A DNA stretch of 50,138 nucleotides, taken from positions 1-50,138 of IMG/VR virus record IMGVR_UViG_2877948078_000005; one strand, 5' to 3'. The position numbers are program-made. The stretch is from a virus. Its lineage: Duplodnaviria > Heunggongvirae > Uroviricota > Caudoviricetes. Shown in pieces: positions 21,001-27,000 of the stretch. Numbering within the stretch: position 1 is the first letter of the stretch; each line of letters starts with the position of its first letter.

Positions 21001-24000
21001 ACCACCCGGGCAGGCACCGCCGCCGTGTAACGCACAACCTTATCCATCAGTACCTGGTGATCGAGTTTTTCGCCCACGGCCTCTTCCCAGGTCTCGCCCA
21101 GCGTGGTGTTCACAAAGGTTTTCAGGCCGTTGGGATCTTTCAGTGCATCCAGCCAGTCATAGACTATCTGTACCCAGGTGGTGAACGGACTGTACGCCGT
21201 CCAGATGTGGAACGTGATGGAGCGCGGCGGCGGAATTTCATTATCCGCGGCGCTGAAAAACGTCAGACCGTCACGGGTCCACATCCCCGTATTTTCACAG
21301 ATCCACCGCCCGTTGCTCTGGTCAAGCTCAGACTGATGGATCACGCAGCCATGATGTTCACAGAGGTAGAAAACGCTTTCGGGGCTGTCCTTCTCCCATT
21401 TAAGGCCAAAAGGCGTGGATTCATCGCCAAATTTCAGATACTGCTCCTCCCCACAGTGCGGGCAGGGCACATAAAAACGCATGAAATGCGCCGACTCGTT
21501 GGCCGCTTTTTCGATCTGGCAGGAGCCTTTGATTTTAGGCGTCGAGCCGCGAATGGATTTTGGCCACACCGACCCCTCAATACGCTTATCCCCCAGCAGG
21601 GTTGGCGAGCCCTCTTTTTCGACATCCGGCTCGAACGAGGAAAGTTCGTCATAGCAGACCACGTCCACGGATTTTTCACGGTAGTTTTTTGCTGCCGCAC
21701 CACCCAGGCACCAGAACCCCACCCCCGATGAAAAGCGTTTCAGCGTGAGAGTATTGTCACGATGTTTACGACCCAGCCACGGGGAAAGATCTTTCAGGCA
21801 TGCCACGTCCCGAATCGTCGCCTCCACGTGAGACTTCATAAAATCTTCAGCGGCAGAATCCGTGGGCTGAAAAAGCAGACTGTTTCGGGATTTATGCTCA
21901 ATAAAATACCCGACCACCCCCAGCAACATCTTTGTATAGCCAACACGGGCAGATTTAATCAGATTAACAGTGCGGATCTGATCATTCCCCATGCTGTTCA
22001 TGATGGCGATCTGGAATGGCAGCGTTTTCCATTCGCCGTCACCGTATGAGGAGTCTTTAGGCAAATAATAATTTTGATCAGCCCATTCAACTGCCGTCAT
22101 CGGTACAACTCTGACCAGAGGCTGCAGCGCAACCGAAACGGCAGCCATCATATTATTCAGTTGTTGCTCTGATATATTCATCCAGCAAATCCGGTAATTT
22201 ATCCCCTGCCCGCGCACACTGATTTGCGCCCTTTGCAATAAGGGTTTTCAGATGGTCAAGATGACGTGGCGTTAAATCCGGGAACTGTCGCTGCATGGAT
22301 AACGGAATGGAATCAAGCGTACTGGACAATGCCATCGCCAGTTTGCTGAGGGCGAAAACGCAGAAGTCTGAATCAATGAGCTTACCTTCGGTTACCTGAT
22401 TTTTAAGTTTTTGAGCTACAGCCTGTTCTTCTGTCAGTTCAGCTCTGGCCCGAAGCAACCTTTCCTCCAGTTCTCCCCCGTCATCAGGTGTTCTCTGATT
22501 GTGTTGTCGCCGCTCGCGATCTATCTCCAGTACAGTTTTAACGTCATATAAAACTTCCCTCCCCCGACGTTCAACAGGAGGAACGCCCCATTTATCAAAT
22601 GCCTGAACAGAGATACCGATGGAGGAGGCCATATCACTTTTATTCAATAAAAAGGCCATCTCCTCTCCATAAGTCATCGATAAAAAGCGATACAACAACC
22701 ATGTGTTTTTGCAAAACCATTTGATATCATTGACATTTTTCGCATTGACGACATCAAAACACATCGTAAGGTTGTTGTATTTATTTTATTTTCACCTTAC
22801 TTATCAATTAGATATACCAAACAATTAAACAACAACCACCCCCCTCAAAAAATCTCATAAATAGTGAAAACGCGCGAGGTCGCCGCCCCGTAACGGCCCG
22901 GATCGCCGGAAAGGACCCGCAAAATGATAATGGTTATCAGTTGCAACAAAATCCAGTTTCTTCCACCATCGCACCGGACCAGCGACCATGAGGGGACAAC
23001 GCCGCGCTCCGTTAACGCGGTAAACCCCGGTGTGTATCGTTTTTGATTATCCCCGCACACTCTCGCAGAGGAGTCTCCCTGTCGGGCTGCGGTCTCTGTT
23101 AATGCAGGAATACGGCGACGATACGGCGCATGGCTATGTCAGGCTGAAATGCCTTTATCCGTTAAAAAGGATATCAATTAAGTTATCCCGTGTAGGGTAT
23201 AAGCCATTGTCGAGACCACTCATTGAATGGCCTCTGCAATAACCGATGTCTTTCCATCAGTCCGCCACCACAAAGAATCTTTTTTGCCATAAGGCTGGAG
23301 GTTCATCTTTCAGTGGCTGCCAGTGTTATTTCCCCACTTACTGGCTTGGGTTGTTTCGCGGTACTGCCGTTAATTGATGAGTCCGGGGATTACGGTTTGC
23401 CCGTGCTGTTCAAGGCGTTCAATTCTAGCCAGCAGCTGTGGCTTCTTAATTTTGCCCCAGCGATTTAGCAGGCGACCTGACATGCTGGCAACATCCTTCT
23501 CTTTCATGTACTCCAGCATTACGGCATTTCTCTCTTCTTCAAATTGACGATGACCAACCTGAAGCATGGCGTACATCCAGTTAAATGCGTTGATGTAAGC
23601 AATTTTGATACGCATTGCTTCTTTTTTGGTGTAGGACATAACCAAAAGCATCAACCCATCCTTGCGGAGACGGTAGAATTTTTGCGGCTTACCATTCTGT
23701 AACTCATTGTTTTTATAGCAAAGCTCAAAGTTGAGCTTTGTATCAAACTCAGGAGGGCAAGCTTCTATGGTTCGTTCAATGTCACGAACTACGTTCTTCG
23801 GCAGCTTTCCAAATGCTTTTGCCACCATAAAAGAATCTGTAACCGGATCGTTGTTTGCCACAAAAATCAGATCTCGAAAATCGATGCCGTTAACGATAGT
23901 TGGATAATTCATCAGTGCACACCTTTTAGTGATGAACCTTGTCACACAGGATTCCGGCCCACAGAAAGGCACCGATCACCAAACCGGCATCCTCAAGGGT

Positions 24001-27000
24001 CATCCTGAAAGGTTCTGTGTTCATAAGTCGCGCGTGTGAAGCGCGTTTACTGCGGACATAAAAAAGCCCCGCATCGCGGGGCTCATTAAATGGACTTTGT
24101 GATTTGCAAAAAAATTATTTCAGGCATTGCGTCCTGATGTATTCCTGCAGGTAGTTAACCTGCGCGGTTATCTTGTCGATTCCACTTCTGAGACGGTAAT
24201 AATTGAGTTCAGCATCTGCTGTAAGTCCTGGGCTTTCTCCATCGCCCATGCTGCTGGCTCCGGTCGTTGACTTTGCACAGGTGGCGGCGACTTGCAGGCG
24301 CTTACGACCAGCAGAAACATCAGCACGGAGACTTTCGATAGTCGCATTAGCATCAGCAAGCTCCTTTGTGTATCTGGCGTCAAGTTCTGCTACATCACGT
24401 TGCCGCTTCTGCATATCATCGATGATGGATGTGGCTTTATCGCGCTGCTCTTTGTAGGCGATGGCGTTATCACGGTAATGATTCAGCCCCAGACTAAGCG
24501 CACCACAGACCACCAGCAGAATAACGGTAAACGCGGAAATAATTCGGTTTATGCTCACCCCACCAGCCCTGCCGAACTCAACGCCATCCAGGCTATGGAA
24601 AGAAAAAGAGCAACCATCATTAGCGAAAATGAAACGCCGACAATCACACAAATGGTCTTTGTCAGCGTTATGATTTTATCCGATATCATTAGCCACCACT
24701 CCATCAATCCGCCTTTGTTATTTTCCCTTTGCCTGTATCAGCCAGGACAAAATCAATCAGCAGATTCGCTTCGTTTATCAATGTGCGGATTTTTGACACA
24801 TGCGCAGCTTTAACCAATTTCCATTCGTTTAACCCTGTACCAAACAGACTGGCAATGTTTTTATCCCGTTTCATGTCAGCGCATGCCTGGTTGAGTTCTT
24901 CCATCACGCTCATTTGACGAGGATTAACGACAACCCCCTTCGTCCAGTATTCATAGAGAACATCGTCGCACTCTTCCTGATACTGGATTACCTTGTCGCG
25001 GATTTCAGGTTTAACTTTGTTTGAGTTGATGGTCTGAAGCCAGGCAGCCAGCTTACGCAGAGCAAGACAAGTCATTGTTTGCTCACCACCAGCAGAAGGT
25101 ATTATGATTTCCGTAACGCCTTTGGCAAATCGTTGTTTTAACTTAGTAAATTGTGGAGCCCAGGCCAGCCCCATCCCCTCAACAATGGGTTTCATAGGAA
25201 CATACGGTTCGCCATTATGGTTAACCACATAAAGAGAATCGCCGTGAAACGGCACGGTCATCATATTCATCGGTTATTTCCTTTTAGTGATGAACCCTGC
25301 GCACAGGAATAACCAGCCCAAAGAGGGTTAACCAGACCACTGCCGGTTATCCACCAGGGCTCATCCTGAAAGGTTCTTTGGTTTATTTACGCTTGTGCGA
25401 AGCGCAGAAATGACAAAGGCACCATTACGGTGCCTCTGCGTGAAATAATGTTCCTGACGTTATTCACTTACATTTTGCCAGTTCGCAGGATTTCTGTTAT
25501 CCGTCCGCGTTGGCCAACGTCATTTTTCAGCAAAATATTCTGCTTATCTGTCGATACCCCAGCACGCCAGCGCGCTCTCCTGGTCACGACGGGATACCTG
25601 ACCATAACAGTTATTTGAGCGGATACGGCAGTCTCTGCCACCGTCTTTAATCCACCAGCGAATCGCCTCGCATGCACCCCGGCGATCGCCTGCATTAATT
25701 CGTTTATAAAACGTCGACGGGAAACACTTACCGGGGCCAATGTTATACGGGCAGAATGACGCGATCCCCGCTTTCTGGGGTTCAGTCAGTGGCACTTTGA
25801 TGTTTTTCTCCACCCATGCCAGCGCCTTATCACGCTCAATGGCGTTAACCCAGTCGCATTTCCCCTTCGACAGCGTCATGCCAGGAATCACAGGCTTACC
25901 ATCCACCCGGGTGGCACCTCGGCAGATGGTCCAGATACCCGCACCATCACGGTATGCCGTGGTGTGGTTACCTTCTTTTTCGTCAAGAAACTGGTCGAGG
26001 ATTTCAGGCGCAGGCGCACCTGCGGCAATCAGCGCCAGAACGGCAGCCGACAGGCCGTATTTGATTTTGGTGTTCATGGATATTTATCAGGATTTATCGG
26101 TTCCGAATCCCTGGATATGTTAAGTCTTCAGCCTGCCAGTGGTGGGCACTGGCACATGTAACAAAAGAGGGATGGCTGATAACCTCAATAAGGAGAACTT
26201 AATGGAAATATCAAACCATGAACTTTTTCAACTAATTCAGGGGCTTCAGCGCGAAAACATAGCTATAAATACCGCAGCCAATTTCCTGTTCTACAACATC
26301 GTTGACATTCTGGATCAGCAAAGTGGAGACAAGAAATTCAGTGATGAGCTTAAAACCAGGTTACATAGCGAACTGAGCAAAATCACAACCTCAGGTAAAC
26401 CAGAGATTAAAGTCGCCATCAATACCCTCATGCAACCACCGGTAAGACCCATGTTTGGCAATACCAGTCCTGAGCCATTTTTGAAATAAAAATCTAAGCA
26501 GCCACTGCTAAATCATCAGAAATTTCATGAATTAGCGAGGCTGCTTTTTTTAAAGCCAGCGCCTCATAAAACGGAATGGTAGCATCTTCCCGTCGTTCAA
26601 TATCTATTTCAATATTGAACAACAGCATTGATGGAACCTGATAATTATATATACCAAGGACAACGACAACATTTTTATCCCCCATGTGGAATGATTTAAC
26701 TGTCATATCGTATTTTTTCATTTTTCACCTCAATTGTTTTCTCTTTTACTATATGCGCCATTTGAGATAAGTCAGCCCCGGCTGGATCCAGCCATCAGGC
26801 TCTTTCTTAAAGGGTGGCGTATTGAAATCACAAAGAAGAGCCTCCCGCACCGCAGCATCCCTGTCTGCACCACTGGCAAGTGCTTCAATCTCTGCCGCCA
26901 GCTGCAGATATCCCATGCAGCGACCAATGCGCTTCATCAGCCCCTGTTTTTTATTGTTCTTCAGGTAATCAATGGCAAATTCAATGAGCGTCTCACTGTG

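Follow-up and report, generated by a model that had tools for sequence, protein, structure and literature searches.

A family of double-pseudoknot RNA leaders ahead of Rha, Ant and other cargo genes in lambdoid and P22-like phages

The window analysed here is the whole 50,138-nucleotide stretch of IMG/VR virus record IMGVR_UViG_2877948078_000005, a lambdoid, Shiga toxin 2 (Stx2)-converting prophage. On its minus strand, two accessory (cargo) genes, one encoding a Rha-family protein and the other a P22-Ant-like protein, are each preceded by a related leader on the same strand. We found that these leaders are copies of a genuine structured RNA of about 140 nucleotides (nt), composed of a small hairpin (P0), a long hairpin (P1-P2) and two pseudoknots (PK1 and PK2). 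The element spans lambda- and P22-like enterobacterial (pro)phages, Shiga-toxin phages included. This double-pseudoknot RNA is absent from Rfam 15, and the literature we searched records it only as P22F, an unexplained small RNA of phage P22. Our confidence in the structure is far higher than in any function. For the latter, we lean, if only slightly, towards a cis-acting leader in which the Shine-Dalgarno (SD) sequence is locked at the foot of the pseudoknot-braced hairpin, so that cargo translation is throttled and the leader is processed to a stable core.

An earlier sequence-only reading of the window had observed that the regions upstream of the two genes share sequence blocks, and both the blocks and their coordinates proved correct. 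The 16-nt block GAACCTTTCAGGATGA (24015-24000 and 25376-25361, minus strand) and the 17-nt block GGTTCATCACTAAAAGG (23938-23922 and 25296-25280, minus strand) each occur exactly twice in the window when up to three mismatches are allowed, where 0.35 and 0.14 occurrences, respectively, are expected by chance. GGTTCATCACTAAAAGG was found twice or more in none of 100 shuffles, and a repeat search of the window lists both blocks (D2 and D5). The block carrying AAGG sits 7-8 nt ahead of the ATG in each leader, and the two leaders align with a mean column identity of 75%. The same reading held that the upstream block is partly complementary to the SD-bearing block; in the predicted folds this pairing (P1) forms in both leaders, where the upstream and start-codon-proximal blocks join into a long hairpin. 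The minimum free energy (MFE) is -69.2 kcal/mol for the Ant leader (z = -5.0) and -65.5 kcal/mol for the Rha leader (z = -2.2). A covariance model built from homologues (R1) matches the window at two places only, 24049-23911 (86.6 bits, E = 3e-22) and 25410-25269 (82.9 bits, E = 4e-21), E-values that are to be taken as rough.

The comparative fold consists of P0, the P1-P2 hairpin and two long-range interactions. PK1 forms between the P2 loop and a hexamer of the P0-P1 linker, and PK2 between the P0 loop and the segment that separates the 3' arms of P2 and P1. We tested the model of P0, P1, P2, PK1 and PK2 on 36 diverse members in an unguided MAFFT alignment. Overall, 93.4% of the cells were paired, compared with 37-43% when the partners were slid by one to three columns, and for every measure the observed value was reached by none of 500 shuffles. 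A second set of 106 distinct members, aligned with the covariance model and hence biased towards nested helices, gave 93.7% paired cells and double changes in 37 of 44 pairs, values that were likewise reached in 0 of 500 shuffles. Taken helix by helix in this second alignment, P0 was 98% paired with double changes in all of its pairs (4/4), P2 was 95.5% paired with 9 of 10 pairs covarying, and PK2 was 91% paired with covariation in 5 of 5. The six pairs of PK1 all form in 95 of 98 sequences, which present 13 distinct fully paired sequence pairs and pair types such as AU 54 and GC 42, UA 62 and CG 33, and CG 88 and AU 11. Since PK1 and PK2 were left out of the covariance model, their covariation is independent of it.

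Further properties of the family agree with a conserved RNA fold. RNAalifold recovered P0, P1 and P2 independently. The signal is strand-specific, as the reverse complement scores 26-31 bits versus about 150 (16-31 bits once the P22 search is included), and P1 contains a conserved G-U pair. Family-wide, the conserved positions are the helices, a GAACC motif and the SD, and the pseudoknot sequences vary far more than P1. Two repeats, X'1 and X'2, are alternative partners of a segment X, and both pairings covary; as X'1 is absent from short variants, we consider it an optional insert. Two candidate additions to the model were dropped: a P3b hairpin (GAGCC/GGGCU), which was 79% paired and showed no covariation, and a two-base extension of PK1, which was paired about half the time.

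All helices of the fold are satisfied by both window copies, and the copies differ from one another by compensated changes in each pseudoknot: CACAGA/UCUGUG in the Rha leader versus CAAAGA/UCUUUG in the Ant leader for PK1, and UCACAC/GUGUGA versus CGCAC/GUGCG for PK2. The complete Rha leader (23911..24049), with P0, linker, P1, P2, PK1, PK2 and SD, has as its first helix the covariation-supported P0 hairpin CGCGC-UUCACAC-GCGCG (24029..24045), whose loop provides the PK2 5' strand UCACAC (24039-24034). The PK1 5' strand CACAGA (24019-24014) follows and is joined directly to a conserved ACC that serves as anti-SD (24013-24011). Next come the P1 5' arm CCUUUCAGGAUGACCCUUG (23994..24012), which includes the upstream block of the sequence-only reading, and the P2 hairpin AGGAUGCCGG ... 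CCGGAAUCCU (23948..23993), also supported by covariation. The P2 loop holds the optional hairpin partner X'1 (23976-23971) and the PK1 3' strand UCUGUG (23965-23960). The PK2 3' strand GUGUGA (23947-23942) and the P1 3' arm CAAGGUUCAUCACUAAAAGG (23941-23922) then lead into the SD, AAGGUG (23925-23920), and the start codon (23912-23910).

The complete Ant leader (25269..25410) follows the same plan. Its P0 hairpin (25388..25406) has the loop CGCAC (25399-25395) as the PK2 5' strand, and the PK1 5' strand CCAAAGA (25381-25375) and the ACC anti-SD (25374-25372) lie within 25372..25382. The P1 5' arm CCUUUCAGGAUGAGCCCUG occupies 25355..25373, and the P2 hairpin GGAUAACCGG ... CUGGUUAUUCC occupies 25306..25352, with X'1 at 25335-25326 and the PK1 3' strand UCUUUGG at 25324-25318. 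The PK2 3' strand GUGCG (25304-25300), the P1 3' arm CAGGGUUCAUCACUAAAAGG (25299-25280) and the SD AAGGAA (25283-25278) come next, ahead of the start codon (25270-25268).

The proposed cis role depends on how the SD is held. In the independent RNAalifold prediction, the GG of the SD is bound to the two C residues of the conserved GAACC (CG 31, UG 4 and UA 1 at one pair; CG 33 at the other), and this GG is paired in nearly all of the MFE folds shown, which cover every sixth of 102 members and both window copies. Lower P1 covaries, and the SD-bearing helix thus has the covariation-supported pairing of an SD-sequestering leader. Prediction and the covariation of lower P1 together therefore point to a paired SD. 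The RBS-occluding (ribosome-binding-site-occluding) hairpin put forward in the sequence-only reading was right about the pairing but incomplete, since the element is about 140 nt long and contains two pseudoknots.

A search with the Ant protein, using one genome per species, showed that Salmonella, Photorhabdus, Symbiopectobacterium, Providencia, Yersinia and Serratia symbiotica have the leader too. Copies in these genera carry plain compensatory changes, and here, as in many viral contigs, P1 is kept with such changes, so the covariation across prophage homologues that had been named as a check on the hairpin was indeed present, and the outcome that would have refuted that reading, a leftover of local duplication lacking conserved pairing, did not emerge. 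Other Ant homologues are instead preceded by an Arc-like (ribbon-helix-helix, RHH) gene and a short-hairpin leader. A pattern scan of IMG/VR retrieved at least 120 contigs with at least 54 distinct cores, and R1 gave 118 good matches in 100 loci, shorter divergent variants included. The loci that a search of viral contigs with the Rha protein brought up were all near-identical and from E. coli, and contributed little to the covariation analysis.

A further copy is in P22 (NC_002371), where R1 finds the element at 39503-39646 with 135 bits. P22F is an 89-nt small noncoding RNA (sncRNA) that was detected at 2054 reads per million (RPM) in P22-infected cells and validated by RT-PCR (reverse-transcription PCR), its function being unknown (Noncoding RNA 2026;12:21, PMC13397905). 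We found that P22F corresponds to P22 positions 39550-39638; its ends lie at the beginning of upper P1 and two bases beyond the SD. It is thus the core of the P22 copy, with P0, linker and lower P1 5' arm absent, and stops 6 nt short of the ATG predicted by the model. In P22, the leader core thus exists in vivo as a discrete and stable RNA. Small-RNA ligation protocols normally require 5'-phosphate and 3'-hydroxyl ends. P22F was captured by small-RNA sequencing with a small-RNA adapter (PMC13397905), and this library chemistry suggests processing by host RNases rather than self-cleavage. The same study describes P22F in one phage, purely as an expressed small RNA, and does not touch on its structure or pseudoknots, a wider family, SD pairing or a link to further cargo genes (PMC13397905).

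The P22 copy also bears on gene annotation. The annotated start of P22 rha/orf201 (39575) falls inside the conserved RNA structure, and the family model places the start at the ATG at 39644, in frame and 23 codons downstream. Similarly, an open reading frame (ORF) listing of the window extends the Rha gene upstream to a GTG at 23972, inside its leader. Elsewhere in P22, at 29668-29683 (minus strand) in the leftward early region and inside the reported sas RNA, the sequence AACCACCGAGCCUGAC is identical at 15 of 16 positions to the linker of the rha leader, AACCACCGAACCUGAC.

In 87 of 108 distinct contexts (81%), the element has on its 5' side a hairpin and T-run whose end is no more than 25 nt away. 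The upstream neighbour is Rz/Rz1 at 55 loci, Q plus pR'-tR' at about 20, and R or a preceding cassette at the others; where it is Q, the antiterminators belong to three Pfam families and the element comes directly after pR' and tR'. Downstream, the cargo includes Rha, KilA-N, P22_AR_N, Bro-N, ANT, HNH_3 and TerB, as well as a periplasmic binding protein, tail-tip-like proteins and unknowns. Rha proteins that are 96-99% identical stand behind different leader subtypes, indicating that leaders and cargo are swapped independently. Six loci (L005, L176, L208, L121, L131 and L132) have two or three leader and cargo cassettes in tandem, with differing pseudoknot sequences. Near members we also observed other Rfam RNAs, namely an int-alpA RNA at Yersinia locus L007 (433-497, plus strand) and isrJ on viral contig L169 (8421-8499, minus strand).

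In the window, the earlier claim that each cargo gene follows its own terminator was borne out for Rha, where a good intrinsic terminator, GAGCCCCGCGATGCGGGGC with a U6 tail (24060..24084, minus strand), adjoins the 5' side of the leader downstream of Rz. It failed for Ant, where the hairpin (25408..25437, minus strand), upstream of the leader and downstream of the R lysozyme gene, has a weak U tail, UUUGUCAUUU, and was not called by the terminator scan. A consensus scan, along with inspection of the spacer by eye, found no sigma-70-like promoter between the upstream hairpin and either cargo start; the scan, which covered positions from 23300 on, also found no plus-strand promoter or terminator opposite the leaders, and no minus-strand terminator immediately past rha. 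Given the lack of a promoter, the upstream position of the terminator and the occurrence of the terminator and leader unit directly after pR'-tR' at other loci, the genes look like late-operon passengers of Q-modified polymerase. The unit is thus terminator, leader and cargo inside a Q-dependent late operon and not a promoter-gene-terminator moron, contrary to the suggestion that the two genes are independently regulated morons. Overall, the earlier interpretation is partly supported.

According to the cis-acting model, the leader would fold within the Q-dependent late transcript, directly 5' of the cargo gene, and would probably be transcribed solely by read-through of late transcription. P1-P2 would form a long coaxial hairpin braced by PK1 and PK2, and the closed fold would set the conserved ACC/CCUUU against the SD at the base of P1. 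In this default state the fold would repress translation, leaving the cargo throttled or blocked despite abundant late mRNA, and host RNases would cut out the folded core as a stable small RNA, the 89-nt P22F in P22. Release might come through processing or through a trans-acting RNA of the C4/IsrK type.

Several points count against this model. The SD pairing amounts to 2-5 base pairs at a helix end, and such terminal pairs may fray, in which case repression is perhaps mild. We found no conserved alternative 'ON' fold in the family, and no trigger was identified. P22F ends between the SD and the AUG, which could reflect plain inactivation of the mRNA, or a function that resides in the small RNA and not in translational control. 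A double pseudoknot is also more elaborate than plain SD masking requires. The evidence on the window phage is from sequence, and accumulation of the core RNA was observed in P22. Finally, most homologues were collected by sequence pattern, which inflates the apparent conservation of three blocks and leaves the pseudoknots unaffected.

The excised small RNA may instead be the functional product, a possible though doubtful reading in which a C4-like antisense RNA is processed from the leader and acts in trans, with SD pairing of the cargo being secondary. Without P0 and the linker, a b'-like loop and an a'-like junction would be free to pair with other transcripts, for instance the leaders of co-resident or superinfecting phages that share the same address, or early rha or ant genes. 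c4 itself is processed from the leader of an ant operon, and C4 RNA matures from a longer precursor by RNase P. P22F is discrete, abundant and 89 nt long, and lacks precisely the cis partners of PK1 and PK2. Moreover, the pseudoknot sequences are far more variable than P1, as specificity determinants would be, and the b'-like loop of the Ant leader, CCUCUUUGG, has 9-nt complementarity to the RBS of an early rha gene in the window (40801-40793).

The layout also resembles that of C4 (P1/P7 immI; RF01695; isrK-C4). In isrK-C4, a1 lies in a hairpin loop and b1 in a linker, followed by a stem that encloses the b' loop and the a' junction. The leader mirrors this order (isrK(a1b1)-C4; PMC2864571 supplement), which it shares with the window's own isrK-C4, and covarying PK1 and PK2 provide the complementarity to upstream sites: the b' loop to the upstream linker b1, and the a' 3' junction to the hairpin loop a1. 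Like the leader, C4 is phage-borne, sits directly upstream of Rha/Ant/KilA-type genes, has a long outer stem round inner hairpins, varies in its specificity sequences between copies with matched changes, and yields a stable processed small RNA from a leader. The differences are equally clear. The Rfam C4 model finds no match at either leader or at the P22 copy, even at E <= 10, and neither does the isrK model; the leader has the extra helix P2; its terminator stands upstream of the a1-like hairpin and not between b1 and C4; and it resides in the late operon rather than in an immunity or early region. No a2/b2-like sites were seen near the cargo SD, which pairs instead with the ACC/CCUUU of the leader's own 5' arm at the foot of the outer stem. 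In addition, searching P22 for trans targets of the P22F loops returned no convincing candidate, only matches of 8-10 nt at chance level, and the fixed spacing from the element to the SD and AUG favours a cis role.

A second tentative alternative, to which we would again assign a minor chance, is that the element mainly serves RNA processing and insulation. As such a module, it would divide the long late transcript into defined segments and protect the mRNA ends, the terminator hairpin capping the 3' end of the upstream mRNA and a structured 5' end shielding the downstream one, by analogy with prophage ribozymes that flank single genes. The discrete ends of P22F fit this proposal, as do the terminator-like hairpin and conserved spacer found directly 5' of the element in the same 81% of members. 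The varying identity of the cargo fits as well, and was noted likewise by Perreault et al. for hammerheads flanking prophage genes (PMC3088659). Such prophage hammerheads resemble our element in being repeated structured RNAs, sometimes pseudoknotted, that bracket variable cargo genes. The element, however, has no ribozyme core, no ribozyme family matched it in the Rfam searches, and the capture of P22F suggests cleavage by host RNases rather than self-cleavage. The 3' end of P22F also parts the SD from the AUG, by which the cargo mRNA would be inactivated and not stabilised.

Rfam 15 has no match to the element. Gathering thresholds were used for the window and seven diverse loci, and E <= 10 for the P22 copy and the leader region; weak matches to asX2, rimP and Leu_leader merely reflect the upstream terminator. 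True C4 RNAs elsewhere in the window score 82-83 bits. They belong to two tandem isrK-C4-Rha-family modules (39379-41027, minus strand) of the early-right operon, which lie about 850 nt from each other, with a cII-like gene on one side and a replication gene on the other. The loop sequence differs from one C4 to the other, and each has a matching site that covers the SD of the gene behind it. isrK (RF01394), a two-hairpin motif of about 53-77 nt, is matched only in these modules (41027-40951 and 40182-40106), and the c4-a1b1 motif alignment describes a different, 53-nt motif (PMC2864571 supplement, Weinberg 2010). We thus rejected isrK and c4-a1b1 as identities for the leaders.

The first of these C4 RNAs (C4 #1, 40840..40926, minus strand, 83.4 bits) has a hairpin-2 loop, GGUUCUUUGGU, that is complementary to the Ant leader at 25382-25372. 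This raises the prospect, an improbable one, that the leader is the target of the phage's own C4, whose loop would open the fold via ACCAAAGAACC and turn Ant translation on, as an IsrK-like anti-antisense. The loop and ACCAAAGAACC share 11 nt of perfect complementarity, the loop's best match in the 50-kb window (its own b2 site has 10 nt), which spans exactly the PK1 strand and ACC of the Ant leader, and there is precedent in IsrK, which activates translation in trans (PMC4825925). Yet the same C4 occurs in mEp460 and PhiR40_1, both of which lack any leader, and the identical Ant leader sequence is present in at least 159 phage records versus only 11 for C4 #1. Loci L128 and L176 each have a C4 and leaders with no complementarity between them, C4 #2 has no match to the Rha leader, and the GAACC/GGUUC part of the C4 #1 match is family-conserved on both sides. 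As C4 occurs without leaders, record counts are unequal and two loci lack complementarity, we rejected C4 as a general cognate partner.

A broader and equally speculative version would make the leaders a new class of cis-folded C4-like RNA switches, with the hypervariable, matched pseudoknots as an address code. P22F-like cores or C4 RNAs of the same address would then invade the PK1/anti-SD region of matching transcripts. If this were true, the code would switch antirepressor-type cargo on or off across co-resident or superinfecting phages, amounting to an RNA-based cross-talk or immunity layer in the late operons of P22 and Shiga-toxin phages.

We consider it very unlikely that the element is a riboswitch or RNA thermometer in which a small molecule or temperature opens the SD. 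A complex pseudoknotted fold with the SD within its closing helix would suit such a sensor, as would lower P1, which is AU-rich and broken by mismatches, and the alternative pairing of X, X'1 and X'2, which covaries for both partners. However, universal conservation is seen in the helices, in GAACC and in the SD, and no unpaired core is conserved throughout, which makes a ligand pocket unlikely; the conserved P2-loop sequence, X'1 included, is missing in short variants, and the cargo genes have no common metabolic theme. Lambdoid phages are mosaic, and near-identical Rha proteins with different leader types indicate that exchange at this boundary occurs, but a duplication remnant or recombination 'linker' at a module boundary, with no RNA function, is essentially excluded because the covariation contradicts it: compensatory changes affect five helices, two long-range pseudoknots among them and both compensated between the window copies, in a large family with a strand-specific signal, six or more genera and an RNA that accumulates in vivo.

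Two further systems invite comparison with the cis-acting model. IsrK of Gifsy-1 (PMC4825925) likewise combines a leader-derived small RNA with a translationally inactive long isoform, lies upstream of an antirepressor-type operon and is controlled by alternative RNA pairing. Unlike the leader, it is a primary transcript ended by termination, its target in trans is its own read-through isoform, and its sequence, structure and genomic position are different. The P22 sar RNA also controls translation of the antirepressor (ant) at the RNA level through the RBS. Its gene lies on the opposite strand and has a dedicated promoter and terminator, neither of which is found opposite the leaders, where the signal is strand-specific. 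Our literature searches on antirepressor, Rha and lysis genes, P22 rha, RNA motifs and exact sequences encountered the element only as P22F (PMC13397905).

P22 and the Stx2 phages of enterohaemorrhagic Escherichia coli (EHEC) are among the best-studied temperate phages, yet the element was uncatalogued. Mediation of prophage cross-talk is a role often discussed for proteins of the Rha/KilA/Ant/Bro antirepressor group, and Rha is reportedly harmful to phage growth in IHF-deficient hosts. The element offers a handle on how and when genes of this group are made during the lytic growth of toxin-converting phages. It corrects start codons, such as that of P22 rha, its compact and covariation-rich pseudoknot fold is useful for structural work, and it provides a test of whether C4/IsrK-style RNA logic reaches from immunity regions into late operons.

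On the minus strand of the window, the R lysozyme gene (26077-25544) is followed by the Ant-like gene (25270-24704), a 50-aa ORF, Rz/Rz1 (24651-24115), the Rha-family gene (23912-23370), and then Nu1 and terminase; the R-ant-Rz-rha arrangement is also annotated in phage P13374 and many Stx phages. The Rha-family protein (180 aa, 23370..23912, minus strand) has the Pfam domains Phage_pRha and ORF11CD3, and the P22-Ant-like protein (188 aa, 24704..25270, minus strand) has P22_AR_N and ORF11CD3. The N-terminal domains are thus unrelated, and the C-terminal ORF11CD3 is common to both. The 50-aa ORF (24555-24707, minus strand), placed between ant and Rz and overlapping the former at its end, is hydrophobic, and its counterpart in P13374 is annotated as a hypothetical protein (ORF53).

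Assignment of the window as an Stx2-converting prophage follows from the presence of the Stx2 A and B subunits, encoded by ORFs of 319 and 89 aa (30859-32099, minus strand) that were identified by eye and by comparison with the Stx2a_WGPS2 annotation. These ORFs are flanked by three tRNA genes (32193-32441) and by a match to Rfam STnc100 (30572-30784), beyond which is an esterase-like ORF of 675 aa (28021-30048). At the other side of the cargo region, the 3' end of rha and about 140 nt beyond it (23227-23426, minus strand) are 95.5% identical to a 204-nt P22 sncRNA, 'P22G' (PMC13397905), and this stretch overlaps a weak match to Proteo-phage-1 (RF03044) at 23315-23350.

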